A stretch of DNA of 64,000 nucleotides from a virus, in the IMG/VR virus record IMGVR_UViG_3300027896_000013; one strand, written 5' to 3'. The notes beneath the pieces were generated by a model. That model was given only the letters and a program-made list of their open reading frames with translations, did no database searches and was not told the origin of the DNA. Below are positions 1-19,791 of this stretch, piece after piece (position 1 is the stretch's first letter; every line of letters starts with the position of its first letter). The translations under genes were made by a program, and so were the position numbers.

Positions 1-9
1 TTATTAAAA

Positions 10-129
10 TGGAGCGGCCGAAGGACTTTCACCTCATCAATCGGGTATAAACCGATTATCTTATATACTTCAGAGCCCAAGCCGGGTCACCGGTACGTTG
101 GCCCACGTGTATTATTAGACGATTACCGC
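10..129 (-). tRNA. tRNA-Ile(UAU)-like with ~45-nt expansion of the D-loop
   Basis: CCA end; anticodon arm AATCGG-TTTATAC-CCGATT; D stem GTCT/AGAT encloses 55 nt (62-116); acceptor stem imperfect. Confidence 0.6.
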
Positions 130-134
130 ATAAA

Positions 135-210
135 TGGTACGCATGCCGGGAATCCCACCCAGAACCCTAATTTAGAAGAATAGTATGATATGTATTTTCA
201 CCACACGCGC
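135..210 (-). tRNA. tRNA-Arg(UCU)
   Basis: Cloverleaf, anticodon loop CTTCTAA, CCA. Confidence 0.85.
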
Positions 211-211
211 A

Positions 212-841
212 TTAAACTATCGAAATAATCTCACGTTTCTGTTTTGACTTAGACAATGTAGATTCTTTCCCCATCCATTCATTGTAAGAACTGGTAAGCT
301 CTTTTGTTATATCAATAAAATCGCTACACAGATCTAAGTCGTAACCATGAGTATGATGCAATTTAGCAAGAGCTTCACCGTCGCTGCCATATTTTTTGAA
401 TAGAATAGGAACTTCTTGTTCTGCTCTTTTGCAAAGATTGTCATATTTTTCTTCCTCTATTCTGATAATCTCTCTAACGTGTTCAGATTTTTCTCTGAAG
501 TCTGCATAAGGGTTGTATTCCTTCATTGGGTTATTCGCTAAACATTGTGGAACTTCATCATCCCAACGAACCAATTCCCTAGACCTGCTGCAAAGGTAAC
601 ACTTATCAGTGCGTTCTGATCCTTCGAAATGATGAGCATCCACTAATTCCGGATCATGATAAGCATAAGTCGCTTTCCAAACATCATCTTGAGCGTCAAT
701 ATTTTTTGAAAAATAATCAGCTACAATAGCTTTATCTACCTTCTTAGGTGATATTAATAGTCTACGAACCTGTTGTGGTAATAATAAAACTAGCCTCTGT
801 AAAAATGTTGGGGTTGTATCTATTATACCTTTATGCATCAT
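212..841 (-). CDS. Protein with alanyl-tRNA synthetase helical-domain fragment
   Basis: IRIEEEKY...DGEALAKLHHTHGYDLDL resembles AlaRS EEE.F...DGE.AF.LYDTYGFP.DL; sigma70-like promoter just upstream. Confidence 0.6.
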   Translation of the reverse strand: MMHKGIIDTTPTFLQRLVLLLPQQVRRLLISPKKVDKAIVADYFSKNIDAQDDVWKATYAYHDPELVDAHHFEGSERTDKCYLCSRSRELVRWDDEVPQCLANNPMKEYNPYADFREKSEHVREIIRIEEEKYDNLCKRAEQEVPILFKKYGSDGEALAKLHHTHGYDLDLCSDFIDITKELTSSYNEWMGKESTLSKSKQKREIISIV

Positions 842-887
842 ATATAGATAATATGATATATGGTAGAGATATCAACTAAAAGAAATA

Positions 888-1006
888 ACCCTCTGAAGAA
901 AGGATTGAGCTTTCTCCGGAGAACCAAGGTACATTACTGCCCTTGAATGACCCCTACTGGTGCGCTTCAACCGATCGAGTTGCAACTCAATCAAGCGTGA
1001 AGGGTA
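888..1006 (-). ncRNA. Unassigned structured RNA
   Basis: Complementary ends (ACCCT/AGGGT) and internal hairpins in a tRNA-array spacer. Confidence 0.4.
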
Positions 1007-1014
1007 CTATTAAA

Positions 1015-1088
1015 TGGATCCCGCTACTGGTTACGCTCCAATTCTCTCAGGGTCAAAACCTGGTGTACTACTATTATACGAAGCGGGA
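1015..1088 (-). tRNA. tRNA-Gln(UUG)
   Basis: Cloverleaf, loop TTTTGAC, CCA. Confidence 0.85.
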
Positions 1089-1188
1089 ATAAATTGTTAC
1101 CTACCAACTTAGCCTCAGTCAGTAGGATTAGTGGTTTGCGGGTTAACCATATTTCAGATGCGACCCATAGCTCTTCAGCTAGATGAAA

Positions 1189-1263
1189 TGGCTGCTAGAG
1201 TAGGGGTTGCACCCACACCATCCAAGTTAACAGCTTGGTGAACTACTATTATTCGATCTAGCA
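1189..1263 (-). tRNA. tRNA-Asn(GUU)
   Basis: CCAAG-CTGTTAA-CTTGG arm, CCA. Confidence 0.9.
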
Positions 1264-1341
1264 ATAAATTATTCACCACCCTTTAACACTAAAGGTACTA
1301 TGTTTTCTAAGAATCTGCTATAAGATTCGTGGCTACTAAAT

Positions 1342-1418
1342 TGGAGTGTCCTGCGGGTAACGCTCCCGCTCGGTATTCACTTTGGAAGAGTGACGCCTCA
1401 CTTGTCGGCCAAGGACAC
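1342..1418 (-). tRNA. tRNA-Gly(UCC)
   Basis: TCACT-CTTCCAA-AGTGA arm, U73-CCA. Confidence 0.9.
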
Positions 1419-1423
1419 ATAAA

Positions 1424-1805
1424 TGGTGGAGTAGCCGGGAGTTGAACCCGGGTCTGAAGATCTTCTAATTACACTGAATTACAAGCTTTGTTGCGTTTTG
1501 CGCTACAACTACAGATTGTATACTGTAGAACTATTCCTCATGCTAACCGTGAGGATATCGGCTTTTCTCACTGCGACGATCGTTGAAGCCTTAGTGAGTT
1601 CAGACTTCGATCGGATTTCGGCTTTTAGGCCAAAACAGCGTCTGTGGCATATTTCGCCAACACTTCATCAGCGTTGTTGAAGATAGCTTCGACTTCATTC
1701 ATGATGTTGTCATTTATGATTTTGCACGATGTATTAACGAGGCCAACGTACGTCCTCGGCTTGCAGTCTAGGTTCGGTGATCTTCATCGATACCATTACT
1801 ACCCC
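1424..1805 (-). ncRNA. ssrA: tmRNA; predicted tag (A)DNIMNEVEAIFNNADEVLAKYATDAVLA at 1625-1711
   Basis: 5' GGGGTAG pairs with CTACTCCACCA (G3:U70), canonical T arm, ATAAAT before resume codon, tag ending VLA. Confidence 0.92.
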
Positions 1806-1815
1806 ATAAAAAAGA

Positions 1816-1889
1816 TGGTCGGGGTAGGCAGAATCGAACTGCCACCACATGATCCCAAATCATGTACACTACCACTATGCAATACCCCG
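1816..1889 (-). tRNA. tRNA-Pro(UGG)
   Basis: CATGA-TTTGGGA-TCATG arm, TTCGATT loop, CCA. Confidence 0.92.
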
Positions 1890-1896
1890 TTATAAA

Positions 1897-1914
1897 TGGT
1901 CGGAATGACAGGTA
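1897..1914 (-). pseudogene. 3' fragment of split tRNA-Pro
   Basis: TACCTGTCATTCCGACCA; CATTCCG pairs with CGGAATG at 2753-2759. Confidence 0.8.
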
Positions 1915-1930
1915 GAGAATAAATAATTGT

Positions 1931-2662
1931 ATGCAATTATTAATATCTACCGACCATCTGTTGACAAAATCTTATAAAGATCCGGTTCCTTGTAGATGTC
2001 TGCAATGTAAGCAAACATTTACAATACGCGCTACTCGCGCTAAAAGTATCTTAAAACAGCAAAAACTGGGTAAAGTTACTGATACAGCAGACTTCTGCTC
2101 ACAGAAATGTCATTACACGTACAAGCACACAGGAGTAACTGTTAATTGTGTCAATTGTGGTGCCCTGACATACGTTCAGCAGAAACTCTATATAAACTCT
2201 CGAAATAGGTTTTGCTCAAAAACCTGCCGAACCACATTTTGTAATGCTCACAAATCGTATGGTTATAGGCGATCAAAATTAGAAATCTATATTGAAAATC
2301 GTCTAAAGCAGGAATTTCCTACACTACCTATTGCGTTCAACGACACATCAGCAATTAACATTGAATTAGATATCTACTTACCTTCTTTGCGATTAGCATT
2401 TGAATTAAATGGTATCTTCCATTATGAACCGATCTTTAAAGAAGGTACGCTTGAGCGAACACAAGAACGAGACCAGCGTAAAATTTTAGAATGCAGTATT
2501 AAAGATATTGAGCTCTGCGTTATAAATACAACAGCTCAAAAATACTTTAAAGAAGCCACGGCAGAGCCATTTTACAGTATCATTAAAACTCTAATAACAA
2601 AAAACCTTAATAGACAGTACTGTTCTGAAATGGTCCACGCGACAGGTAACGCTCCTGCTTAA
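1931..2662 (+). CDS. Putative homing endonuclease, Zn-finger repeats + Vsr/EDxHD-like nuclease
   Basis: CxxC/FCSxxC repeats; ELDIYLP..LAFELNGIFHY; TAAATA upstream. Confidence 0.75.
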   Translation: MQLLISTDHLLTKSYKDPVPCRCLQCKQTFTIRATRAKSILKQQKLGKVTDTADFCSQKCHYTYKHTGVTVNCVNCGALTYVQQKLYINSRNRFCSKTCRTTFCNAHKSYGYRRSKLEIYIENRLKQEFPTLPIAFNDTSAINIELDIYLPSLRLAFELNGIFHYEPIFKEGTLERTQERDQRKILECSIKDIELCVINTTAQKYFKEATAEPFYSIIKTLITKNLNRQYCSEMVHATGNAPA

Positions 2663-2708
2663 TGACTAGTTCCCAAAACTAGTGGGTTCACTTTTTCCCT
2701 ACGCGTGG
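2631..2708 (-). tRNA. tRNA-Pro(UGG), intact copy inside the insertion
   Basis: CTAGT-TTTGGGA-ACTAG arm, CCACGCG/CGCGTGG acceptor, CCA. Confidence 0.85.
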
Positions 2709-2711
2709 TTC

Positions 2712-2759
2712 CTTGATCTTGCTCCCAAACCGAGTGCCTCACTTTTAGGCTACATTCCG
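2712..2759 (-). pseudogene. 5' fragment of split tRNA-Pro(UGG)
   Basis: CGGAATG, D arm, TTTGGGA loop with mismatched stem. Confidence 0.8.
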
Positions 2760-2761
2760 TT

Positions 2762-2851
2762 ATAGTTGGGCCCTTTGTGGAACAAGCATTTAGTCCGTGA
2801 ACCTTTCTGGAACTCACAGATGCTTCTAGGACTTTCACCTACACCAACTAT
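2762..2851 (-). ncRNA. Circularly permuted tRNA-like (YrlA-type topology) RNA
   Basis: Terminal stem ATAGTTGG/CCAACTAT; T-like arm TAGG-TGAAAGT-CCTA, then closed AAGCAT/ATGCTT stem, then small D-like hairpin. Confidence 0.5.
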
Positions 2852-2957
2852 TAAATACTGCCCCCCAGTGAACTATTCACGAGAATCGCACTGCCCGATT
2901 CCAGGAGGACTTCCAGCTGTCCATTTGATGCGGAATTGAACCGCTCAGCTGGTTAAA

Positions 2958-3032
2958 TGGCGCCTCATTCCGGTGCCGCCCCGGAGACTGCGAATAGACA
3001 GTTCGCTATGATAACTGTTTCAACAATGAGGC
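2958..3032 (-). tRNA. tRNA-Asp(GUC)
   Basis: GCGAA-CTGTCTA-TTCGC arm, G73-CCA. Confidence 0.88.
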
Positions 3033-3068
3033 TCTTGAAAAGTGTTACACTCTCGCTTAAGTATTTAT

Positions 3069-3962
3069 ATGAATAACTCCGAAGTGCATGAATACCTATC
3101 TAAGTTTAAATATAGTGATCTAGTAAATTTGACGTGTTCATTTTGTATGTCTCCTATACAAATTCGAAAGCGAGACGCTATTCAACAACTACGATATCGT
3201 GGTAGATTATCATGTAGTTCAGGTTGTGCACGAACCCATTCGAAGTGTGTAATAGTCTCTTGCGCACAATGTAAAAAACCTGTAAAGAGATCACTCAAAT
3301 ATAAATCTAAACACTCATTCTGTTCACGATCTTGTTCTGCTATATTCAATAATAAATTAAAAGATTATAGTTGGATAACACCCGAATTTAAACAGAAATT
3401 ATCAATCAAGATGAAAAATATTCCACCAGCTGGTTTTAGATTAAATCCTAAGTTATACGGTAGTAAAGGTGGTAGATGTAGTAAACGGAAATTGCCTCGC
3501 ATCGAATCAATATGTCAAAACAAATCATGCAATAAAATCTTTGAACATATATCAACAACTAAACGTGTTTACTGCTGCAGAGCTTGTGCAGATCAAAATC
3601 GTTATCATCCAAATTCTACCATTGTTCATCGCTCAACATATAAAGATCAACAAATGGATTCTGGTGCGGAACTTATTTTTGCAAAGCTACTCGACACAGT
3701 TAACATAAAATGGATTAAAAATCAGACTCAATATTTCTCATTTATTGGCTTAAATGGAAAGCAGAAAAGATACTACCCAGATTTCTTTTTACCTGATCAT
3801 AATTTATGGATAGAAATTAAAGGCAAACGATATATAAGGCCTGATGATGAATTGCGAAGAGCGGCTGTTGGTAATATTGTTCTTATAATGGCATCAGAAC
3901 TTCGCAATTCATCAGCTGTTTTATCAAAAATAACGCAGATTCGCCAGGCCGGCTCTGCGTAA
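3069..3962 (+). CDS. Putative homing endonuclease, Zn-finger repeats + PD-(D/E)xK nuclease
   Basis: Several CxxC/CSxxC; MDSGAE...YYPDFFLP...IEIKG; start moved to ATG after TAAGTA. Confidence 0.75.
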   Translation: MNNSEVHEYLSKFKYSDLVNLTCSFCMSPIQIRKRDAIQQLRYRGRLSCSSGCARTHSKCVIVSCAQCKKPVKRSLKYKSKHSFCSRSCSAIFNNKLKDYSWITPEFKQKLSIKMKNIPPAGFRLNPKLYGSKGGRCSKRKLPRIESICQNKSCNKIFEHISTTKRVYCCRACADQNRYHPNSTIVHRSTYKDQQMDSGAELIFAKLLDTVNIKWIKNQTQYFSFIGLNGKQKRYYPDFFLPDHNLWIEIKGKRYIRPDDELRRAAVGNIVLIMASELRNSSAVLSKITQIRQAGSA

Positions 3963-4005
3963 GCCTTTGTAGGTTCCACTGCCACTGGCAGGTAACAAAT
4001 TGAAT

Positions 4006-4120
4006 TCTCTATCTAGGTCTCATGTTCATCACCTAGCCAATCCCGTATATCCTGCCTTCTACCTTATTAGGGTGGGGATATGCTGCTGTTCCATCGTCAG
4101 GCTCTCTTACATCAATAGAG
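4006..4120 (-). ncRNA. Unassigned structured RNA
   Basis: CTCTAT/ATAGAG ends, two internal hairpins. Confidence 0.4.
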
Positions 4121-4123
4121 AAA

Positions 4124-4209
4124 TGGTGCGCCGTGATGGAGTTGCACCACCCGAGCCTTTCGACACGAGATTTACAGTCTCGCCCGCTACTCCTACGGTC
4201 TAACGACGC
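4124..4209 (-). tRNA. tRNA-Tyr(GUA)
   Basis: CGAGA-CTGTAAA-TCTCG arm, long variable arm, CCA. Confidence 0.92.
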
Positions 4210-4212
4210 AAA

Positions 4213-4287
4213 TGGTTGCAGGGGCATCGTTGCAGATGCATTTTGAGGTTATGAGCCTCACGAGTTGGCGATTACTCCACTCCTGCG
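4213..4287 (-). tRNA. tRNA-Met(CAU), initiator-like
   Basis: CTCATAA loop, C1:A72 mismatch, CCA. Confidence 0.8.
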
Positions 4288-4294
4288 TCAAAAT

Positions 4295-4504
4295 TGGTGT
4301 AGGTCTCCGGAATCTCACCGGCCTTCTTGTCGCGGTTTCATCTCTATTTTAATCTAATATAACTAACTATCATCCAACACTTACCGCAAGCGGTAATATA
4401 TGTCTTTTAAGATCTCCTCACCTCTAATATAGAAGACAAGAGACTTAAAAGGTTATATATTATCCATAATATATAGACAATTGTGCATTTTACACCTAGC
4501 CTAC
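4295..4504 (-). tRNA. tRNA body with 144-nt structured sequence in place of anticodon loop; identity unresolved
   Basis: Acceptor, D arm, TTGTC/GACAA stem, T arm and CCA flank 4332-4475. Confidence 0.65.
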
Positions 4505-4546
4505 AAATTCAGTATAGATGAATTGATAATTAAATCAACATAAAAG

Positions 4547-4693
4547 TGGTGCGCTGAGCAGGATTCGAACTGTAGTAATACAATCAATTGAGTTGTATCA
4601 CAACAATAGACTCATGTGGATTCCGGTCTACCACTGCTAACTGCAACCTCCCGGCTAAACACCGGGCGCCATTACCTGTTAGGCCATCAGCGC
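4547..4693 (-). tRNA. tRNA (central anticodon UUU, atypical G33) with 70-nt insertion in T stem
   Basis: Removing 4571-4640 gives GCAGG-TTCGAAT-CCTGC; perfect acceptor GCGCTGA/TCAGCGC, CCA. Confidence 0.75.
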
Positions 4694-4703
4694 ATAAATT
4701 TTT

Positions 4704-4900
4704 GCGTAAGCTAGTAGGCAAACTATTAACATCTCACACCCCTCAAATGGGGCTCGGATATCATGTGCTTCTCTGCACCATCTTAAGCTAAAAGAGCACG
4801 AGTAATAGGCAAACTCCACGCTACCATCTACACTGATCACTCAGCTACACCGGGCATTCCCAGCTAACGGAGCATTTGGGTGCTTCTCTGCATTACTCGT
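4704..4900 (-). ncRNA. Two tandem related RNAs (4704-4788, 4798-4900)
   Basis: Both have TGCAGAGAAGCAC...AGTTTGCCTA inside closing stems. Confidence 0.55.
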
Positions 4901-4909
4901 AAACGAATC

Positions 4910-4999
4910 AGTAGAGTGAGGGATTTGAACCGGAGGAGCTACCTCTTTCTCTCGAGCCGGTCAGAGCTCTTTTCCATGCCGTGTACTTAGGCCTCTACT
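4910..4999 (-). pseudogene. Degenerate tRNA-like element
   Basis: AGTAGAG/CTCTACT stem, GGTTCAAATCC T loop, no CCA, irregular arms. Confidence 0.45.
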
Positions 5000-5967
5000 A
5001 AATGGTTTAAAATTTCCTGTTTAATGTCATCTACTTTACCAGCATGAAGTACAATATTATTTTGTTCACGAACTAATCTAAGCTTTTCAGCATCTTGTTT
5101 CATCTTATATGGATTTTTCGGATCTAAATAAACATTAAGAGCCGGTAAAAAGAAATCTGGGTAATACCGGCGACGTTTACCGCTACCATCAATATACCAT
5201 AGCATTAATTTTCTACTCCGTCGCCATTCGATATTCTTTTCATCTAAAAATTTTGCGATATCAACTTCCCAACTTGAATCCATTAAAATATCTTTGTATC
5301 TATACCGCTTAAAATTAGTCTCACCACCACAATTTGGATTAGCTAGTGAATTACGTGAAAGTAGTTTACTCTTACAGTCAGGACTACAGGTCTTTGCAAT
5401 TCTTGTGGATTTTCTTGTAATAAAATTAGCGTCACAGATTATACATTTTGTAAATATAAATCGTGGAAATTGGGTCATATCTAAATCTTCTACTCTCTTA
5501 CTCGGTGATGAGGAGAGATATAACCGCGGATGTGTTGCGTAATATTGTTTCTGCTGTTGCTTGCGTATTTCAACTTTACATGTATCACAATAAATTTCAG
5601 GTACATTTATATAAGTTGTTACTAACTTCTTACAACCTTTACACGGTATTTCTTTTCGTTGTTTAGCTAATATCGGTATGTTATATTGGCGAGAACATTT
5701 ATGTGAACAACATTGTTGTGAACGATTTTTAAATGGTATATATCGCTGGCACACCGGGCAATGTTTAGGTGATTTATTGTATAATATTTCTGCTTCAATC
5801 AACTCTACTCTACCACCCGATCTACCTAGGTACTGTGGAAATGTTCGTTTTAATAACTCTCTACTAATATGTAGTTGGCGCGCGATCCAATCTGTCGGTC
5901 GGTGCTCAGTATGCCACTTCAGTATCTGTTGTCTATTTTCCTCAATAATTCGTTGTTGCTTACCCAT
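4987..5967 (-). CDS. Putative homing endonuclease, HTH + Zn fingers + PD-(D/E)xK nuclease
   Basis: CxxC repeats; MDSSWE...YYPDFFLP..VYLDPKN; TAAGTA upstream. Confidence 0.75.
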   Translation of the reverse strand: MGKQQRIIEENRQQILKWHTEHRPTDWIARQLHISRELLKRTFPQYLGRSGGRVELIEAEILYNKSPKHCPVCQRYIPFKNRSQQCCSHKCSRQYNIPILAKQRKEIPCKGCKKLVTTYINVPEIYCDTCKVEIRKQQQKQYYATHPRLYLSSSPSKRVEDLDMTQFPRFIFTKCIICDANFITRKSTRIAKTCSPDCKSKLLSRNSLANPNCGGETNFKRYRYKDILMDSSWEVDIAKFLDEKNIEWRRSRKLMLWYIDGSGKRRRYYPDFFLPALNVYLDPKNPYKMKQDAEKLRLVREQNNIVLHAGKVDDIKQEILNHLVEA

Positions 5968-6020
5968 ATATCAATACTTATGTAATAAGTATGGTGGAGC
6001 AACTAGTTTTTACAGAGACG

Positions 6021-6093
6021 TGGAGATGGTCGGTACCGCCCCGACTTCTACCGGGTGCAAACCGGTCGTGTTACCTTTTAGCACTACACCCCC
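6021..6093 (-). tRNA. tRNA-Ala(UGC), CCA not adjacent
   Basis: ACCGG-TTTGCAC-CCGGT, G3:U70; displaced CTCCACCA copy at 5992-5999. Confidence 0.88.
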
Positions 6094-6104
6094 ATAAAAT
6101 TAGA

Positions 6105-6195
6105 TAGGCTGCGTACTATCCGCTATACGATCCGAGCGCGGCGGTATCTCTACCGCTTACCCAGGTGGGATTCGAACCCTTAGTACGTTTCAGTT
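6105..6195 (-). ncRNA. Circularly permuted tRNA-like RNA
   Basis: GGG-TTCGAAT-CCC T arm precedes a closed acceptor-like stem and a consensus D arm GTAT-AGCGGATA-GTAC. Confidence 0.6.
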
Positions 6196-6199
6196 AGAT

Positions 6200-6274
6200 T
6201 GGTAGTCCATAGCAGTAACGCTCTGCTTTATCCTGTTAGAGAGACAGGCGAATTAACTTTTATTCTAATGGACC
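6200..6274 (-). tRNA. tRNA-Glu(CUC)
   Basis: CCTGT-CTCTCTA-ACAGG arm, CCA. Confidence 0.85.
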
Positions 6275-6284
6275 ATAAATACGA

Positions 6285-6359
6285 TGCTGGTGTTTTGCTA
6301 ATGCTAAACTACACTAGTTTTTGTTACTAGCGGCGGACCTTGCACCCACGACTCCAGCA
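6285..6359 (-). ncRNA. Circularly permuted tRNA opened at the anticodon loop
   Basis: TGCTGG-AGTC-T arm-CGCTAGT(AACAAAA)ACTAGTG-TA-D arm-A-CCAGCA. Confidence 0.75.
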
Positions 6360-6365
6360 AATTGA

Positions 6366-6501
6366 ATTAGAAGGTAGAACTGTCTACCCAGTTTGGAGCC
6401 ACAGACGCGATGAACTTCTCAGTATTCACCAGCTCTCAGACAAAATTGAACGAGTGCATTGGCCGTCATTCTCACTTCCTGCCTTATTTCTAAGGTTCTA
6501 A
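6366..6501 (-). ncRNA. Unassigned structured RNA
   Basis: TTAGAA/TTCTAA ends with internal hairpins. Confidence 0.3.
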
Positions 6502-6503
6502 AT

Positions 6504-6578
6504 TGGTAGCCTTGGTAGGAGTTTCACCTACAACCTTCCACTAATCGGGTGGATACTCTAAAGTTGAGTTACAAGGCC
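6504..6578 (-). tRNA. tRNA-Ile(GAU)
   Basis: TCCAC-CCGATTA-GTGGA arm (C33), CCA. Confidence 0.82.
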
Positions 6579-6584
6579 GTAAAT

Positions 6585-6660
6585 TGGTACCCCTGGCGAT
6601 GGTTGCAATCGCTGTCGCTCGGTTAAAAGCCGAATGCTTATCTCGTTAAGCTTCAAGGGC
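6585..6660 (-). tRNA. tRNA-Lys(UUU)
   Basis: CTTTTAA loop, CCA. Confidence 0.88.
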
Positions 6661-6674
6661 GTTAAATTGAAATT

Positions 6675-7715
6675 AGAGGTTGTATTCCGTAGCCGCGATA
6701 CTAAGTATACTTATGAAAGAACAAATCATCGAAGCAGTTCGACAATATTATAAAACATATAACAAATCTCCAGGAATTCCAAATAGTTGTAATCCTCTGA
6801 TGCCTGATGTACCATGTTATGCAACAATTAAAAAATACTTCAATTCGTGGAATGAAGTCTTAAACATTGCAGATATACCATTAAACATGAAGTCACCAAA
6901 ATCGAGAGTGCAAATTATATGTGCAAACTGTGGTAATACTAGAATGATACAACCTACAAGAATAAGTCAAACAAAACGCTCTTTTTGTAGTAAACATTGT
7001 GCAGGTACATATAATAGTAAACTACCAAAACATAAAACATTTCAATCAAAAGCAGAAAAGCAAATTAGAAAATATATTACAACTAACTATCCAAATCTTG
7101 AATTCATCACAAATAACAAATCACATATCGGTTACGAACTTGATATTTTTATACCGAGTCTCCAACTCGCTTTTGAAATAAATGGTATTCATCACTACAA
7201 ACCTATATATGGTACACCTTTATTTGAAAAAATAAAAATACGTGATAATTTACGAGTTGAAATGTGTGCTGCAAAAAATACAACACTCATAGTTTTAAAT
7301 ATTTCTAAACTCTCCCAATATACAGATAAGCATATGCAACCGTTTTATCAAATAGTAGATACTGCAATTAAAGATCACATGAAATAGTCTCGATTCGGTA
7401 ACCAATTTCTCGGTGTTAATCATTTATCTCAGTCTTTGCAAACTGGTCGATCGTTAAAATCGACTGCCCCAACCATTGCCTGGGTAACGTGTAGCACTAC
7501 CATCCATATTTGTACTTGCATCTACTATGTGGTCAATGAATCATAGGCTTATTCTATAACCCCTTTATTTCACCCTTCCTGCTGAACTTATCCGAGTTTT
7601 TCAAGGGCTCAGGAATGATTCTCCCACGAGCTGCTGTGATGGCGCGAACTTCCTCTAACAACCCAGACCTATTGTATTCATAGGTGACAGGGCTATCAGC
7701 GATAGGTCGAATGAG
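6675..7715 (-). ncRNA. rnpB: RNase P RNA-like gene interrupted by 695-bp nuclease insertion
   Basis: P3 hairpin then GAGGAAGTTCGCG; GGGTGAAA; GCAAG..CAAATA; AGATAAATGA; ACCGAATCG|CGGCTA rejoined across 6700-7394; P1/P2 pair weakly. Confidence 0.75.
6713..7387 (+). CDS. Putative homing endonuclease, Vsr/EDxHD-like nuclease
   Basis: N-terminal PCYATIKKYFNSWNE repeat, Zn finger, ELDIFIP..LAFEINGIHHY; TAAGTA upstream. Confidence 0.75.
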   Translation: MKEQIIEAVRQYYKTYNKSPGIPNSCNPLMPDVPCYATIKKYFNSWNEVLNIADIPLNMKSPKSRVQIICANCGNTRMIQPTRISQTKRSFCSKHCAGTYNSKLPKHKTFQSKAEKQIRKYITTNYPNLEFITNNKSHIGYELDIFIPSLQLAFEINGIHHYKPIYGTPLFEKIKIRDNLRVEMCAAKNTTLIVLNISKLSQYTDKHMQPFYQIVDTAIKDHMK

Positions 7716-7720
7716 TAAAT

Positions 7721-7828
7721 TGGCGCGAGGGGAGATGTATCAGATCTCATTTCAGCACTACCGAGTTTTAATCGGTTGATACGGCGACTTATCAGCTTGG
7801 GTTGAAAATCAACCACTGCTGCCCTCTC
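7721..7828 (-). ncRNA. CCA-ending acceptor/T minihelix carrying a nested three-hairpin domain
   Basis: GAGAGGG/CCCTCGC-GCCA, GAGAT/ATCTC T arm, inner CAGCA/TGCTG junction. Confidence 0.55.
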
Positions 7829-7834
7829 ATAAAA

Positions 7835-7906
7835 TGGCCCCGCCGTAAGGTATCTCACCCTACTTACCGGATTTGGAGTTCGGTTTGTTCAATTGAACGC
7901 GGCGGG
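7835..7906 (-). tRNA. tRNA-Trp(CCA)
   Basis: CTCCAAA loop, short D arm, G73-CCA. Confidence 0.82.
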
Positions 7907-7913
7907 ATTAAAG

Positions 7914-8127
7914 TGGTTGGCCGAGTTTGCACACGCAGTTGCAACCGCGTAGCCTTATCGTGTAGAATTTGCACCTACCCATTGCTGATCAGGCAATGTA
8001 CTCCCAACAGTGTATAAATTTTATGTTCAACATATCACACTCGCCAGAGCTAGGGAATCGAACCTTAGATACACTGAACATGGTAGCCGAGCAGTAGTGC
8101 TGAATACGCTCATCACCGTTTCGGCGA
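7914..8127 (-). ncRNA. Two non-canonical tRNA-like RNAs (7914-8009, 8041-8127)
   Basis: Paired ends and T-like arms (GTAGG-TGCAAAT-TCTAC; AGG-TTCGATT-CCC) without standard cloverleaf. Confidence 0.4.
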
Positions 8128-8213
8128 CACAAATTGGGCGCTCTCGTTTATCCCCTATCACTGTCGGAAATCACAGTAACGATTCGGGGCCTGAAACGCA
8201 ATTCCGAGATTAA

Positions 8214-8315
8214 TCCAGATGGAAGGATTTGAACCTTCGGCGTCTGCATGATCACCCTTTTGCGGTGTCTTGTACCATCATAGTGTGCAGCGGTCTACCA
8301 CTGAACTACATCTGA
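8214..8315 (-). tRNA. tRNA body with 37-nt anticodon loop; identity unresolved, no encoded CCA
   Basis: Canonical acceptor, D arm, CTGCA/TGCAG stem, GAAGG-TTCAAAT-CCTTC. Confidence 0.7.
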
Positions 8316-8324
8316 AATTGAATC

Positions 8325-8427
8325 CAGTTACAGCAGCTGGGGACGAGAACCCTGTTACTCCCGTGTCGAAATGACTTTGAATTGGGTGCGAAGCTATCAC
8401 CACATGAACTCGTAATTACTGTAACTG
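8325..8427 (-). ncRNA. Unassigned structured RNA
   Basis: 11-bp terminal stem CAGTTACAGTA/TGCTGTAACTG, T-like hairpin. Confidence 0.45.
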
Positions 8428-8487
8428 AAATAAAAGGCTCGCGCAAAGCGACAAGCCCAACACCTCCTACCATGGGTAAGTGTGAAA

Positions 8488-8562
8488 TGGAGTGCGAGAC
8501 GGGTAACGCTCCCGCTTGACCTTCCTTGGCAAGGAAGTGCCTCACTTTTAGGCTACTCACAC
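8488..8562 (-). tRNA. tRNA-Gly(GCC)
   Basis: CTTCC-TTGCCAA-GGAAG arm, U73-CCA. Confidence 0.9.
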
Positions 8563-8774
8563 ATGAAATTAAAGGGGGAGCCAAAGCTCGACCCCATTAA
8601 ATCGACGATAGAGCTTTCTCTGTTCCGTCGAACGCCGTGCTATTTTGGAGCTTATATCCAACCTGGGTTCTGCTTTCGCATAACACCCCACGACCGTTTA
8701 GCGATTTTATACTTTCTAAGCACCTTTTTCAAGGAGGCTCGCTGTGAGAGTTCTAAGCCTATCCGTAAATTCCT

Positions 8775-8815
8775 AATAAAAAACCCGCTACTTTTTTCTT
8801 TTTAGTAGCGGGTTT
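8775..8815 (-). terminator. Intrinsic terminator of putative attenuator
   Basis: 12-bp stem AAACCCGCTACT/AGTAGCGGGTTT followed by TTTATT. Confidence 0.85.
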
Positions 8816-8836
8816 CAAAATCTCTGACAAAACCCA

Positions 8837-8953
8837 CTACATTGTAAATCCTTTTTCGTCCGAATTCGCAATCGTAGTCTCATGACGCAGACAATACGGT
8901 TGCCAAGGGCTATTACCCTTTATACTCGCTCTTGTTGTTGGCATTGTTCGCAT
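8837..8953 (-). CDS. Putative attenuator leader peptide, 38 aa
   Basis: MRTMPTTRASIKGNSPWQPYCLRHETTIANSDEKGFTM; TAG lies within antiterminator strand 8830-8840. Confidence 0.7.
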   Translation of the reverse strand: MRTMPTTRASIKGNSPWQPYCLRHETTIANSDEKGFTM

Positions 8954-8960
8954 TTTAAAT

Positions 8961-9020
8961 TACTTATGCTTCGCGTTTCTTTTTCTACTATCAATATACA
9001 TACTATTTTTTAAAGTGCAA
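8961..9020 (-). promoter_or_regulatory. Tandem sigma70-like (TTGCAC-N16-TATATT) and late-type (TAAGTA) promoters of RNA operon
   Basis: Motifs at 9020-8993 and 8966-8961. Confidence 0.65.
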
Positions 9021-9272
9021 CTATTTTTCTTTACGTAATTCACGCAACAATAAATCAAGTATAGGTCTCTTCACTTCAAAGTCTATATTATCACGCAAAG
9101 CAACCCATATAGAACGACCAGTGTCTGAATCTATTTCCAAACTTGTCGCATCAAAAGTAGGCATACGAACAACACCTGTTATAAGATTCTTGGGTATAGT
9201 TAAAACCCAAGTTTCTACAGATCTCTGCTCGTGATAATCTTGCTCTACCTTACTCACCTTTATACCTTTCAA
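9021..9272 (-). CDS. Hypothetical protein
   Basis: ORF overlapping neighbour. Confidence 0.55.
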   Translation of the reverse strand: MKGIKVSKVEQDYHEQRSVETWVLTIPKNLITGVVRMPTFDATSLEIDSDTGRSIWVALRDNIDFEVKRPILDLLLRELRKEK

Positions 9273-9441
9273 TATCTAGCTTGCTAAGATTCCACGGTAC
9301 CATGTGACCACACTTATTACAGCTAAATTTTTCAGCCCACTCACCATACACACTCTTATCTCGATATGTACCATTCTTACACTTTAAACAACGTTTCCGG
9401 TACATATTAAACACTCTCTGAATTATACGTGTGTTGGTCAT
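9250..9441 (-). CDS. Small Zn-ribbon protein
   Basis: CLKC...CNKC. Confidence 0.55.
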   Translation of the reverse strand: MTNTRIIQRVFNMYRKRCLKCKNGTYRDKSVYGEWAEKFSCNKCGHMVPWNLSKLDIERYKGE

Positions 9442-9658
9442 AGATTCGATAAATACTATTATAGCGTATGTTAAACGAAAGTAAAGAAATTTTTAAGATT
9501 TATTCTGGTTCACCTGCAAGTATTAATGTTACTGTTACCAACACTGATAAGTGATAAACTGTTAGTTATGTCAGATGAGGCTGCTTTAAACTCGATTATT
9601 ATATCCATTGCTGAAGCCAACCAAGTAATATGGGTCAGTTGACAGCTGTGTAGCATTA

Positions 9659-10084
9659 ATGGAGACGAAGTCAGTAAAATTCTGTGACATATGTATGTAT
9701 TTATATTTTGACGCTATAAATATCAATGTGAACGTCTACGAATCTAGATTTCTAGCAGAGGGTGATTTTGACCCTCTCTATGATGTACCACCTTACAGCA
9801 TTTATAAGGTATCCTTCAGATATGATGGTAAGAATTATGCTACTACTGTTCGTGTTAATAGTCTACACGAGAAAGAAAGCGCTATCGCACCTGCAGTTGC
9901 AAAGGTTCTACGATCCCTTGGAGTTGAGTCAAACGGTATTTTGACAGATACCATCTTTAACATTAAGCATTTTCCAAAGAATTACAACCTCAAAGTAGAA
10001 TACAAAGAGGATGTAAAGAAACCTACTAATATGCGTGAGCTCTTCAAGAAGAAGCGTCGACCTACTCGTAGTCCTTCAGCATAA
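9659..10084 (+). CDS. Hypothetical protein
   Basis: ORF track; start uncertain. Confidence 0.55.
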   Translation: METKSVKFCDICMYLYFDAININVNVYESRFLAEGDFDPLYDVPPYSIYKVSFRYDGKNYATTVRVNSLHEKESAIAPAVAKVLRSLGVESNGILTDTIFNIKHFPKNYNLKVEYKEDVKKPTNMRELFKKKRRPTRSPSA

Positions 10085-11396
10085 ACTTATTACTCTTCGG
10101 TGGGATGCAATGCTGATAGTTCTCTGATAGGAACCAATACCATCTTTCCGGTCTCACAGGAGATACATTGTCACCGTAACCATCTGTAATAATGAAGATA
10201 GCATCCGGGTAACGGTCAGTTTTCTTCTTCTTCATATCCTGTTGAATATAGTCTTCAATGATATGAAATGACGTACCACCAAACCCGTAGAGCTTCTTAG
10301 AAGCAAAAGATGTTTCGTATATCTGCGTATCAAAGCAAAACAACCTAATGTCAAACCGCTCTTCAGGTAGCGATGATGCAGCTTTCCAAAAGCGATCAGC
10401 CAGATGAGCGCAGCTACCAGATGTATCTAAAAAGAACATCACCTGTACGCGTCTGTTTTCGTCAGCAAAGGAATCTGTCTCCATTTCGGTTGGAATAAAG
10501 ATCTTACCAGCACTAAGCGATTGAACGGTGCAGAAACGACGGTTAATACGCGCCCATTGATCCTTCGATTTATCAGAGCGATACATATACTTCTGCATCC
10601 AGCGCTTAATAACGGTCTCCCATTTACTCTTCTTAACAACCTTAACGTTGACCATTACTTTAACGACTCCACCAGCAGTAGAACCAGCTTGCTTAGTGGT
10701 TTTTGATTCGTCGTCAATAGACTTCTCAACAGCCTTTTTCAGGTTATCGACTTCCTTATCAGAAAGAGCATCACAAGCTTCTTCAACCTTACCGTCAATC
10801 TCTTGCTGAGAATCAGAGTCACCAAATGCTTCACCACCTTCAAATTCACCGTGAGTGTCAACAGTTCTGCATTGACCCTTACCTTCACCTTTACCACCGC
10901 TTTGCGGCTGACCTTTGCCACCTTCACTCACGTTAACGGTCTTAGCATTCTTTATCAACTCATTGTAGTAGAAGTCCATTGAACGTTCCTTTTCAATACC
11001 GTTAGGGAATACAGTGTCATACCAGCAGAGCTCTGCTTGGTTCATAACACGTTTACGATCAAACCCGAAGTTTTTGACTAGGCTTTCGTTAATCACAACA
11101 TCAGCTGCAATGTTACCAATCTCCGGGTGTTTACCTTTGAGACGAGCACCATGATAAAGTATCAAATGCAAAGCTTCGTGACAGATTACAAACTTGCGGT
11201 TGTAATCATCCAGGCTAGCCCAGAACTTAGGATTAAAGTTGAATCCAAAGTAATTGCCTTCCTTGTCAAAGGTAACCGCAGCAGTTGGAATCTTGTCATT
11301 CACAACCGGGCGACCCATTTGCCACAGCCTAGAGAAGATACCGTGGTAGCACTCTAGGTCTTGCGCTATGTTAAAAAACTCATCGAGAGTTATCAT
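10062..11396 (-). CDS. HExxH metallopeptidase-like + vWA protein (DUF2201-like)
   Basis: HEALH, NIAAD..IN, LDTSGS, GGTSF, IITDG. Confidence 0.85.
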   Translation of the reverse strand: MITLDEFFNIAQDLECYHGIFSRLWQMGRPVVNDKIPTAAVTFDKEGNYFGFNFNPKFWASLDDYNRKFVICHEALHLILYHGARLKGKHPEIGNIAADVVINESLVKNFGFDRKRVMNQAELCWYDTVFPNGIEKERSMDFYYNELIKNAKTVNVSEGGKGQPQSGGKGEGKGQCRTVDTHGEFEGGEAFGDSDSQQEIDGKVEEACDALSDKEVDNLKKAVEKSIDDESKTTKQAGSTAGGVVKVMVNVKVVKKSKWETVIKRWMQKYMYRSDKSKDQWARINRRFCTVQSLSAGKIFIPTEMETDSFADENRRVQVMFFLDTSGSCAHLADRFWKAASSLPEERFDIRLFCFDTQIYETSFASKKLYGFGGTSFHIIEDYIQQDMKKKKTDRYPDAIFIITDGYGDNVSPVRPERWYWFLSENYQHCIPPKSNKFMLKDYE

Positions 11397-12829
11397 ATGA
11401 ATTTAGCAAGATTTGCTTTGATGTATTCGTTAACCTTCTTGGACTGACGCGGGGTGATATTGTCCTTCTTGTACTCAAACAAGCAGTTGTGAACGTAAGA
11501 GAACACATTATCAAACCCACTGAAACCAGACATAGCCGTATAATCAGATGTACTCTCAATCATATCGCACAAGCAGTTTGACACATTCTCAGCTTCAGAT
11601 ACAGTGAGACCAACTGATTTCTTGATGTAATTGTCAACCAGTGTAACAGTCAATGATTCAAAGAGCTGTCTACGATAGGTCGTACCTTTCACGATATACG
11701 CACCGTATGAAGCAAGCAAAGAAGTAACATTGTTGCTCGTGTAACCAAGATACGCTGAACGCGGTTTATTCACTTTTCCAGCAAGATTCTTAAAGGTCAA
11801 CTTGCTGATATCCATTGGTGAATTACGCGCCATTTCAAGGATGTGAGACGCGAGACGCTTCTGTACATTCTTATTGGTCGAAGCACCTGCAATCACAGTC
11901 TTATACGTATTGTAATCATTGAATACAAAGTTTTGAACAGCAAGGTTGTTCGTAGTGAGAATCACCTGCTTCTCTTCAGGTATGAACGGGAAGAAGATAC
12001 TAATCCTCTTCGGGTCTTCACAGATATACTTGAAGGTGCTGTTGTAGTTATTCTCATCAGCGATGAACAGCTTAGCTTGCTCCATATCGTCAGTTTTCAT
12101 AACTTCATCCAAGCGCTTGCGGTATGAACCACACTTGAGCTCAGTAATCAGTTTACTCACGTTGATCTTCTGTGGAAGCACATCACGGACGTCACCACCG
12201 TCGATATACATCTGAACAGCGTACTCCAAACGACGAGGGCTAACAAGATCTTTCTCCTTTGCTTCGAGTTCATTCCACCAGGAGACTGCAGACTCACCTA
12301 GACCACTCTCAAAGCGGCGACGGAAGAAGCTGAGGTCGGGTTTGTAAGGTACAATCACTTGAACATGGAAGCGATCTCTTTGCGCGGGGTCAAGCTTTTC
12401 AACATCATACCGGACTTCACCAGCATCTTCACCATCGCTATCTGGATTAACAGCAACCCATATGATCTTGAGATTGTTGAACTTACGACCGTTGATAGAC
12501 TTAAACTGAACCAACTCCATAGTCGCATTACGAACTTTGGGTTGGCTGCGGTTATATTCGTCCAGGAAGATCGCTTGGATCTCATCATCCGCGAAGCACT
12601 TGGGGCGGATGAGGTCGATATAAGTACTACCGTCTGCATCGGTGACTTCTTTAGGTACACCTACAAAGTCCACCCACGGGTCGAGAGTCGATGCAGAGAA
12701 GTAGCGCCACTTCAATTTGGCGCGTTCAAATGCATCAATGATGCGCGCGGTCTTACCCACGCCGTGTTTACCTTCGAATAGTACGTTGTAGTTGTTTTTG
12801 ATCCAAAAATCGAGCTTATTGTCAGTCAT
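11393..12829 (-). CDS. MoxR-like AAA+ ATPase
   Basis: GKHGVGKT, IFLDEYNR, LDPAQRDRF; start placed after TTGAAA-N17-TACAAT; frame stays open to 13012. Confidence 0.85.
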   Translation of the reverse strand: MTDNKLDFWIKNNYNVLFEGKHGVGKTARIIDAFERAKLKWRYFSASTLDPWVDFVGVPKEVTDADGSTYIDLIRPKCFADDEIQAIFLDEYNRSQPKVRNATMELVQFKSINGRKFNNLKIIWVAVNPDSDGEDAGEVRYDVEKLDPAQRDRFHVQVIVPYKPDLSFFRRRFESGLGESAVSWWNELEAKEKDLVSPRRLEYAVQMYIDGGDVRDVLPQKINVSKLITELKCGSYRKRLDEVMKTDDMEQAKLFIADENNYNSTFKYICEDPKRISIFFPFIPEEKQVILTTNNLAVQNFVFNDYNTYKTVIAGASTNKNVQKRLASHILEMARNSPMDISKLTFKNLAGKVNKPRSAYLGYTSNNVTSLLASYGAYIVKGTTYRRQLFESLTVTLVDNYIKKSVGLTVSEAENVSNCLCDMIESTSDYTAMSGFSGFDNVFSYVHNCLFEYKKDNITPRQSKKVNEYIKANLAKFI

Positions 12830-13043
12830 GTTTTTATTGTATGTTGATTTGTTTTGTTTTTCAAGTTTTTTCTTCGACAATTTCGGTGTATACGTTAACG
12901 GTATATAAGGTGCATATATTACTGTTGGTGCACCAGGATGTACCTTCATCTGCTTTGGAGTTGACCACTTCATTGTCCATTTTTTTCTCATCTGAACAGG
13001 ATGATAGTGCAATATTATTGCACTATCAAGGAGAAACTACAGA

Positions 13044-16531: not shown

Positions 16532-18133
16532 TTAAGGTGTTTTATTAATACCTATTCTGGTTGCTGCCGCGATTGCTTCATCTACATGCGTATCATTCAA
16601 AGCGGTATATGACGCTATAATAGCTGCTCCCAGTGATTCATCTTTTGCTTTGAGATCGCAAAGCAATGTTGTTAGCTTTTCTAGACTTAGCTCAGCGGAT
16701 TTCTTAAGAACCTTTTCAAACATATCTTCATATGTAGACGGCGGTGAAGAATTCTGTATTATACCTTTACCGTTACCGTCACCAATAACTTCATCACCAA
16801 GAACGATAAGTTGATTGAGAATATATTTCTCCCAAGCGAGTTCATCTGCCATGTTTAGCTGAGAGAAGTCGATATTGAATAATGATACGCGATTAAACGC
16901 CGGTTTTGACGTTTTTTGCAAATACTCTTTCAATCCTGTTGCCCAATCGTACCCACAGAAGAGACCTGCCTCGCGAATAACCTCATTTACCCACTCGCTT
17001 GATAGTTTCTTCTTCTCTTCAGTTGTTGTAGCAGAAGCTAGATCGTTATTGAATCTACTAGTTATCATTCTAAACGTCTGGCTATATTGTACAATACTAC
17101 GAGGGCTAGGCCAACCATGCTGATTTGCTCCTTTACCAAACTTACCACCTGAATATTTTCTAGGCATCACGAGAAACGTTTTCTTTGGATCCGTCTTAAC
17201 GTAATCTACGATAAATTGATCGACATAAGTCTTACCCGTCTTCTCATTTATTGTGGTTGCATATCTGAACCACAACTCAGGATCTGCTACAAGAGTACCA
17301 ATCTTACAACGGTTTGTTGCAGCGGGTGTCATATCAGTTGTAAGCTCCTCGAACATATCACCTAAGTTACCTGCACCACATACAAATACGTTTGGACTCA
17401 TCGGATGTTCACCGATTACTCTGTCCCAAAGAATCTGATACATGATCTTACAAACATCAGGGTTTGCTTGATTGATTTCATCTAGCAGTAGAATACCTGC
17501 AGCATCAGGATTAGTCACCATGTGCACCCAAATAGGTGTAGTGTTTACTTCGTATTCTTTTTTATTACCAACCATTGGTAGACCAGTAATATTCTCTACA
17601 AGCATGGAAGCTGATCTAACGTCAAAAATCCAAAAGTAATCTTTCAGATTTTCCATTACGGTTTCTTTCTCTGCCCATGTTGGTAAATTGTTAAAGATGA
17701 TAACATCTTTAGATTTCTCATCTCCTTCTATAGCTTGAACCTTTCCTTTTATCGTTGCGCTAATAGTGTTACGATCATTGAAATGTTTGCGTTTAACCTT
17801 CTTACCGAACTGTTTTAATATTTCACTCTTACCAATACCAGGTAACCCCCAGATGAGCATTGTATTCTTTTCAGGTTTATCTTCGCTTGTTTCAAAAGCG
17901 TTCCAAAGTGCTTGTTCAACCGTCTTGTAGGATAGCTTAATAGAACCAGTTTTGACTTCTTCTACTTTATCACCCTTTGATCTGTCTAGAGTAGCTTGCT
18001 CGAAATCTGTCGGGTCTTCACCTGTATACGCGTCAAAAGGTGAAATAGGCGGCGGAGCCTCTTCAGCACTACCATATTTGCTTGCTTCTCCAAGAAGAAA
18101 TTTTTCTACTAGTTTTTGGTCGAGTTTTTTCAT
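16532..18133 (-). CDS. Second MoxR-like AAA+ ATPase
   Basis: WGLPGIGKS, LLLDEINQA, PAATNR, PSPRS; start moved to MKKLDQ after TAAATA. Confidence 0.85.
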   Translation of the reverse strand: MKKLDQKLVEKFLLGEASKYGSAEEAPPPISPFDAYTGEDPTDFEQATLDRSKGDKVEEVKTGSIKLSYKTVEQALWNAFETSEDKPEKNTMLIWGLPGIGKSEILKQFGKKVKRKHFNDRNTISATIKGKVQAIEGDEKSKDVIIFNNLPTWAEKETVMENLKDYFWIFDVRSASMLVENITGLPMVGNKKEYEVNTTPIWVHMVTNPDAAGILLLDEINQANPDVCKIMYQILWDRVIGEHPMSPNVFVCGAGNLGDMFEELTTDMTPAATNRCKIGTLVADPELWFRYATTINEKTGKTYVDQFIVDYVKTDPKKTFLVMPRKYSGGKFGKGANQHGWPSPRSIVQYSQTFRMITSRFNNDLASATTTEEKKKLSSEWVNEVIREAGLFCGYDWATGLKEYLQKTSKPAFNRVSLFNIDFSQLNMADELAWEKYILNQLIVLGDEVIGDGNGKGIIQNSSPPSTYEDMFEKVLKKSAELSLEKLTTLLCDLKAKDESLGAAIIASYTALNDTHVDEAIAAATRIGINKTP

Positions 18134-18158
18134 TTCGATATTATTATTTATGTTTAAA

Positions 18159-19790: not shown

Positions 19791-19791
19791 A

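Follow-up and report, generated by a model that had tools for sequence, protein, structure and literature searches.

A compact cassette on the minus strand of a 64,000-nucleotide (nt) stretch of viral DNA (IMG/VR record IMGVR_UViG_3300027896_000013; the entire stretch is called the window here) has the layout of a transcription attenuator. It lies directly before a block of transfer RNA (tRNA) and transfer-messenger RNA (tmRNA) genes and comprises a sigma70-like promoter, a conserved TAAGTAATT..ATG start region, an open reading frame (ORF) of 38 codons (38 to 54 across the lineages that share the cassette), an intrinsic terminator, and a segment that pairs with the 5′ arm of that terminator (Table 1). 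Judging from the sequences, we put at about even the chance that the cassette is a ribosome-operated (leader-peptide) attenuator heading the RNA-gene block. An earlier prediction made from the window without database searches (the original prediction) had described two promoters, a 38-codon ORF, and a terminator, all of which are present, and had proposed that the element senses a stall at any codon.

Table 1. Features of the leader cassette and of the RNA genes behind it, listed 5′ to 3′ on the strand that carries them
Feature	Positions	Strand	Details
Sigma70-like promoter	8993..9020	minus	−35 TTGCAC 9020-9015, 16-nt spacer, −10 TATATT 8998-8993; read from sequence
Gene-start signal TAAGTAATTTAAAATG	8951..8966	minus	Late-promoter-like TAAGTA (8966-8961) 7 nt before ATG
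Leader ORF	8837..8953	minus	ATG at 8953; 38 codons + TAG (8839-8837)
Peptide core W-QPYC-L-RHE	8879..8905	minus	Codons 17-25; Q, P, Y, C, R, H, and E invariant in four lineages
Segment 1 GTAGTGGGTTT	8830..8840	minus	Antiterminator 5′ arm; contains TAG (8839-8837)
AGATTTT	8817..8823	minus	Antiterminator loop, just 5′ of segment 2; kept in all four lineages
Intrinsic terminator	8775..8815	minus	11-13 bp GC-rich stem, A-rich 13-nt loop, U-tract
Segment 2 AAACCCGCTAC	8805..8815	minus	Terminator 5′ arm
Segment 3 GTAGCGGGTTT	8781..8791	minus	Terminator 3′ arm, then T-run to 8775
Spacer, terminator to first tRNA	8563..8774	minus	Promoter-like site 8732-8704, hairpin 8595-8577
tRNA-Gly(GCC)	8488..8562	minus	First gene of the array
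Rest of RNA-gene block	138..8487	minus	About 12 further tRNA or tRNA-like genes; tmRNA 1805-1424

The same cassette was found in four lineages: that of the window and three from other uncultured phages, labeled L002, L003 (L022 is the same sequence), and L029/L030. L002 and L003 were reached via homologs of a neighboring 444-amino-acid DUF2201 protein, and L029/L030 via P0123, which came from a profile search with the leader peptide against 1.84 billion representative proteins. The promoter layout is common to all four lineages, the other three promoters reading TTGCAT-17-TAATAT, TTGATT-17-TATAAT, and TTGCAG-16-TATATT (−35 box, spacer length, −10 box). Upstream genes differ in every lineage, similarity between lineages sets in abruptly at the −35 box, and the cassette always stands directly before RNA genes, the first of which is tRNA-Gly(GCC) in L002 as well as in the window. 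Therefore, the cassette is a self-contained unit attached to the RNA genes. The original prediction had named a check in related phages, namely, a short ORF with an antiterminator overlapping its stop codon, covariation of the stem, and high codon diversity, and this expectation held in the three further lineages.

The terminator competes with a second hairpin. The stop codon of the leader ORF lies within segment 1, which pairs with segment 2 over 11 to 13 bp in the window. The resulting antiterminator helix has an energy of −16.8 kcal/mol and the terminator one of −19.3 kcal/mol, and the two are mutually exclusive, as had been proposed. The corresponding energies of antiterminator and terminator are −15.2 and −17.6 kcal/mol in L002, −19.3 and −20.6 kcal/mol in L003, and −17.6 and −17.0 kcal/mol in L029. 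When the 67 nt upstream in the window were randomized 5,000 times and scored for a partner to segment 2, a single shuffle equaled the observed duplex energy; 5, 39, and 3 shuffles per 5,000 did so for L002, L003, and L029, respectively. The leader terminator belongs to a set of only about five strong terminator loci in 64 kb. Seven strong terminator-like hairpins are present in the 64-kb window, and the leader terminator alone has an upstream complement (12 nt, versus 3 to 6 nt for the others).

Segment 1 follows the terminator arms as they change. The window lacks a "TC" in segment 2, and the matching "GA" is missing from both segment 3 and segment 1; elsewhere, the arms vary between lineages by insertions and deletions (indels) that segment 1 tracks, the pairing being kept with a bulge in L003 and L029. 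(These pairings were tabulated by coordinates, the MAFFT alignment not being in structural register.) Segment 1 encodes Ser-Ser-Glu-like residues in three lineages and covers the stop codon and untranslated bases in the window, so what is conserved here is the RNA rather than the peptide. L029 carries segment 1 (GGTAGCGAG) twice in tandem, at 439-447 and 454-462, 15 nt apart, in the last codons of its 54-codon leader.

The end of the ORF is held in place relative to the hairpins. Segment 1 always lies on the stop codon or inside the last 7 codons, and the distance from the stop codon to segment 2 is 24 nt in the window, 26 nt in L002, 23 nt in L003, and 24 nt in L029, despite ORFs that differ by up to 16 codons. 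A terminating ribosome protects about 12 to 15 nt 3′ of the A site, so at this spacing, it would cover segment 1 or have just unwound it, leaving segment 2 free. All four lineages thus have, as trp- and his-type attenuators do, an intrinsic terminator before the putatively regulated genes, a mutually exclusive antiterminator, and an ORF end positioned for the choice between hairpins. The AGATTTT of the antiterminator loop pairs with AAAAT of the start-codon region in single-sequence folds and could link translation initiation to the switch.

Several lines of comparative evidence indicate that the leader ORF is translated. A 35-amino-acid version, begun at the second ATG, had been predicted earlier by a public gene caller. 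The homologous ORFs of the window, L002, L003, and L029 have 38, 47, 45, and 54 codons, respectively, with the ATG aligned, and the reading frame is preserved across every indel. In the core QPYCxRHE, nucleotide differences are confined to third codon positions and the x codon. Further residues shared among the peptides are IKG, SP, and FAN; outside the core, the peptide is poorly conserved, and its length varies by 16 residues. The ORFs have a DNA identity of only about 50%, with saturation of synonymous sites, so that a ratio of nonsynonymous to synonymous substitution rates (dN/dS) is not computable. We counted residues that are identical but whose codons differ. The window and L002 have 20 residues in common, 11 of them with different codons, and over the three pairs among the window, L002, and L003 (L029 was left out), the counts are 11, 5, and 7 in frame versus 0 to 4 in the other two frames, in an alignment that was built on protein and is thus biased toward frame 0. 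On this comparative evidence, the cassettes very probably contain what trp- and his-type attenuators also have, a short translated ORF in the 5′ leader.

The start of the ORF resembles those of other genes of this phage. TAAGTAATT..AAATG is unchanged in all four lineages. A TAA[AG]TA motif stands 5 to 15 nt 5′ of the ATG in 15 of the 36 long genes of the window, where about 1.6% would be expected, and a Shine-Dalgarno-like pentamer precedes just 2 of the 36. The pattern suggests either late promoters that yield nearly leaderless mRNAs or an initiation signal other than Shine-Dalgarno. Since the leader ORF carries the same TAAGTA signal, it looks like a phage gene start, and since the genes of this phage rarely use Shine-Dalgarno sites, the lack of one at the leader ORF counts nothing against its translation.

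The peptides are unusually diverse in composition. The window peptide (38 residues) contains 19 types of amino acid, all but Val, encoded by 31 distinct codons, in agreement with the original count, and 1.8% of genic windows of equal length reach 19 types. L002 (47 residues) also has 19 types, reached by 7.1% of equal-length genic windows, and L003 (45 residues) and L029 (54 residues) have all 20, reached by 0.8% and 2.5%, respectively; random draws from the phage amino acid frequencies gave similar figures. The original prediction had rated codon diversity as only modestly above chance, which was an underestimate: each lineage falls in the top 1 to 7% of genic windows. Because the four lineages are related, multiplying these tail probabilities is not permissible. 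Enrichment of regulatory codons for the regulated product, as in trp- and his-type leaders, is absent from these peptides, which hold 19 or 20 types of residue and no run of any of them.

His, Trp, and Tyr are each single-copy in all four peptides; the single Trp adjoins the core in two lineages, whereas the other two have it in an IKW farther upstream. Rare amino acids are overrepresented among the invariant residues (P = 0.017). Fixed residues that are rare and single-copy would be expected under selection for the presence of each amino acid, since a fixed position would then be needed for the rare ones only. It had also been claimed that the leader contains a codon for each identifiable tRNA downstream, and this is true of all 10 typed phage tRNAs, a result achieved by 1.2% of genic windows. 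We rejected the reading of the leader as a roster written in the codons of the downstream tRNAs, as the share of cognate codons is not raised; for the same reason, the presence of a codon for every typed tRNA is best ascribed to overall diversity.

These features suggest the following scheme. Transcripts would begin at the sigma70-like promoter and probably at the late-type TAAGTA signal as well, and the 38-codon ORF would be translated like other genes of the phage that have no Shine-Dalgarno site. A ribosome reaching the stop codon would cover or unwind segment 1, whereupon segments 2 and 3 would pair and transcription would terminate at 8781-8775. A ribosome delayed in the first 30 or so codons would leave segment 1 free to pair with segment 2 once the latter is made; the terminator would then be blocked, and transcription would proceed through the spacer RNA to tRNA-Gly and the genes that follow. 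The scheme presupposes translation itself, coupling between ribosome and polymerase, a switch working in the direction given, and a natural limit on decoding. Nearly every amino acid occurs about once in the peptide, so the most likely quantity reported by the switch is general decoding speed or translation capacity and not the supply of one amino acid. In the fullest version, a stall at any codon would turn the operon on, and the whole 9-kb block would be a single gated operon. A role in counter-defense is possible, though we hold it to be doubtful: ribosomes slowed at any codon, for example when host tRNAs are uncharged, degraded, or cleaved by anticodon nucleases, would allow read-through to replacement tRNAs, tmRNA, and a conserved RNA.

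A number of observations weigh against a ribosome-operated attenuator that senses every codon. Val accounts for 7% of the proteome, yet the peptides of the window and L002 have none. The 8-residue core is fixed in place, which a sensor requiring one of each amino acid does not explain, and against the strict all-codon form, the Pro, Arg, and Glu of the core are conserved though they are not single-copy. Codons cognate to the phage tRNAs show no enrichment, accounting for 34% of the leader versus 39% of genes. In all four lineages, the full-length naked leader folds in favor of the terminator by 7 to 10 kcal/mol, so the pairing of segments 1 and 2 must win kinetically, and we could define no conserved partner upstream of segment 1 that would form a protector helix. 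The lineages found number only four, and all are related, which means that the statistics are not independent. Finally, a promoter-like site follows the window's terminator at 8732-8704, and a hairpin with a T-run lies at 8458-8435 on the minus strand, 30 nt after tRNA-Gly(GCC), with none in L002; this hairpin may end the first transcription unit or may be a processing site. These last two features make control of the full 9-kb block doubtful. Of the proposed all-codon attenuator, the conserved cassette, the exclusive hairpins, and the diversity stand; the fixed core, the missing Val in two lineages, and the hairpin after the first tRNA speak against its all-codon form.

The fixed core might instead belong to a conserved small protein with its own function. 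The hairpin and U-tract would then be an ordinary terminator, the complement in segment 1 would tune the 3′ end or stability of the mRNA, and the tRNAs would be transcribed from separate promoters. QPYCxRHE is fixed at the amino acid level, as would be expected for a folded or binding peptide, and its C and H, together with a C-terminal Cys in two lineages, could bind metal; the promoter-like site after the terminator would also fit separate transcription of the tRNAs. However, that site is not conserved in the other lineages, the variable length and poor conservation of the peptide outside the core count against a small protein, and no homolog of the peptide was found outside the cassette among the 1.84 billion representative proteins. 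A protein of independent function also would not account for the constant position of the cassette before RNA genes while upstream genes change, and it leaves the pairing of segments 1 and 2 and the fixed spacing from stop codon to segment 2 unexplained. We consider this explanation unlikely.

The core might also make the cassette a specific attenuator, in which a single signal (a small molecule, a factor, or one tRNA species) would make the QPYCxRHE nascent chain pause or arrest the ribosome, as in TnaC, SecM, and the Erm leaders. Arrest peptides typically show positional conservation, which a sensor of all codons would not need, and the invariant 8 residues lie about 40 nt upstream of segment 1, where an arrested ribosome would leave segment 1 free. 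Nevertheless, the core matches no known arrest motif, and specific arrest would leave unexplained why the variable parts of the peptide are so diverse in amino acids in all four lineages. Moreover, the invariant residues are mostly rare and often single-copy, a pattern also expected from selection to keep each amino acid present. We therefore regard specific arrest as quite unlikely.

A third explanation would dispense with the ribosome: a protein or RNA (for example, an antiterminator of the phage or, in the manner of T-box leaders, a tRNA) would pick the hairpin, and the ORF would be incidental. Pairs of terminators and antiterminators occur in protein- and tRNA-dependent systems as well, and the AGATTTT and the 5′ region are conserved. 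Yet a cmscan search of window positions 1-12000 at E ≤ 0.1 recovered tRNA, tmRNA, and a weak RNase P match only, with no T-box or other Rfam leader family, and the third-position variation and preserved frame show selection on translation, while the stop codon holds its distance to segment 2. A switch independent of translation is accordingly improbable. Least credible of all is coincidence, in which both the complement and the open frame beside an ordinary terminator would be accidents. AT-rich DNA has many short ORFs, and the likelihood of a 38-codon open frame by itself is about 8%, but the frame, start signal, core, and complement are kept in four lineages despite about 50% nucleotide divergence, shuffles rarely match the duplex (1 to 39 of 5,000), and the six other terminator-like hairpins of the window have no such complement.

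Behind a ribosome-operated switch, the first product would be the spacer before tRNA-Gly(GCC). The equivalent of about 230 nt is nearly identical among the other lineages (L002:15536-15790, L003:15903-16151, and L029:527-748), where its conservation exceeds that of the leader ORF and several compensatory pairs occur; the window version (8774-8563) has strongly diverged. With no Rfam match to this spacer, it is probably an undescribed structured RNA, as judged from these substitutions. Protein-coding candidates in the spacer were rejected. The antisense ORFs (107 amino acids in the window and a call of 138 amino acids in L003) are not conserved in L002 or L029, and a same-strand ORF of 38 to 40 amino acids is broken in L003 by paired single-base insertions. 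Because these insertions break the ORF and yet add a base pair, we read the spacer as RNA.

The original prediction had described what follows as some 9 kb of stable-RNA genes. The tRNA genes and tmRNA (a match of 120 bits) are indeed there, interleaved with four homing-endonuclease ORFs. Default ARAGORN finds 6 tRNA genes, and Rfam or relaxed ARAGORN finds about 13. Among the Rfam matches missed by default ARAGORN are two on the minus strand of 102 nt (8214-8315) and 144 nt (4550-4693), which are tRNA-like with long inserts. The claim of an RNase P RNA in the block fared less well: there is just a weak, partial Rfam match at 7380-7558 to the bacterial class B model, of 24.9 bits against a gathering score of 97. 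L002:17294-17602 has a weak match to an archaeal RNase P model (31.2 bits, far below the gathering score). Both matches fall within the tRNA arrays, and an RNase P-like phage RNA may be conserved between the lineages.

The cassette resembles the enterobacterial leaders trpL, hisL, thrL, leuL, ilvL, and pheL in having a short leader ORF, an intrinsic terminator, and an exclusive antiterminator, with ribosome position as the proposed deciding factor; as in the trp attenuator, the naked RNA prefers the terminator. It differs from them in that its ORF does not repeat the codons of any single amino acid in a run, nearly all residues occurring about once, and in that tRNAs and tmRNA rather than biosynthetic enzymes lie behind it. 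It also has three definable pairing segments with no conserved protector helix, no Shine-Dalgarno site, and no match to an Rfam leader family. In antibiotic-responsive leaders of Firmicutes (e.g., mef/mel; PMC4335068), a terminator is likewise overcome when a ribosome stalls in a short leader ORF before it, but these respond to drug-bound ribosomes and control resistance genes.

The closest working analog is the whiB7 (wblC) attenuator of mycobacteria and other Actinobacteria, in which a shortage of any of many amino acids, tRNAs, or synthetases holds the ribosome up in an upstream ORF (uORF) and leads to read-through (PMC10274678). Which amino acids are sensed there depends on the content of the uORF, and that of Mycobacterium smegmatis has 19 of the 20 (PMC10274678). 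Taking the codons for an amino acid out of the whiB7 uORF was shown to make that switch blind to it. A uORF of broad composition joined to an antiterminator and terminator is likewise found in the phage cassette. The two share no sequence relationship, however; the whiB7 uORF is Ala-rich and controls a bacterial transcription factor, whereas the phage peptide is enriched in no residue, including Ala, has a fixed core, and precedes RNA genes. In its proposed working, the phage cassette is like the whiB7 family, and it is not a member of it. The L-array (trn operon) of Anabaena sp. PCC 7120, a supernumerary tRNA array induced by translational stress (PMC8421152), follows a similar logic, a spare tRNA array being turned on when translation is impaired. 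Unlike what we propose for the phage, its induction acts through promoter repeats, and a leader peptide, attenuation, and a terminator go unmentioned in PMC8421152.

Full-text literature searches found no published description of attenuation control of phage tRNA genes. Phage tRNA arrays have been discussed as aids to codon usage or as spares for when host tRNAs are depleted or cut by defense systems, and to our knowledge, almost nothing has been reported on how phages regulate them. If the cassette works as a ribosome-operated gauge of general translation capacity that turns on replacement tRNAs, it would be the first case of attenuation control of tRNA genes and would provide a sensor-effector loop for phage counter-defense. 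Attenuation would then extend from amino acid and resistance genes to the translation apparatus itself, with a feedback loop in which slow decoding yields more tRNA and more ribosome rescue. The counter-defense hypothesis would become directly testable with a small reporter, and the cassette, self-contained at about 250 nt, could serve as a portable sensor of translation stress.

Searches for further copies returned little. A blastn search of the region against 50,697 phage records gave no match. Scans of IMG/VR with the neighboring protein, a degenerate QPYCxRHE pattern, two words of the spacer RNA, and the tRNA-Gly junction gave chance matches only; the JGI metagenome scan returned L003 again (as L022) and one chance match, and scans of GTDB genomes found nothing. 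A word-indexed protein search with the peptide profile recovered only the window's own ORF, and nhmmer with the four-lineage leader alignment detected no second cassette copy in the window or the fetched loci. Among more distant relatives of the neighbor gene, L005 and L024 have different synteny or contigs that are too short. In the distant relative LR756511.1 (L025), a 595-kb uncultured megaphage, a TTGACA promoter at positions 37900-38190 is followed after about 200 nt by a strong terminator and then another TTGACA, all before one tRNA cluster; this leader has no homologous ORF and no visible complement to the terminator arm.

The DNA is a metagenomic contig (157 kb in ENA) of an uncultured T4-like phage, and the products encoded in the window include a major head protein of the gp23 type, a portal protein, and proteins of the baseplate and tail fibers. 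All features of the cassette lie on the minus strand. Upstream of it, an ORF of 83 amino acids, for whose product no homologs were found, stops at 9021, and the sigma70-like promoter starts directly after. The neighboring 444-amino-acid DUF2201 protein has hundreds of metagenomic homologs and a single distant match among deposited phage genomes. Genes for a DUF2201-type metallopeptidase and an ATPase occur in two sets near the array, at 10062-13012 and 16532-20793.

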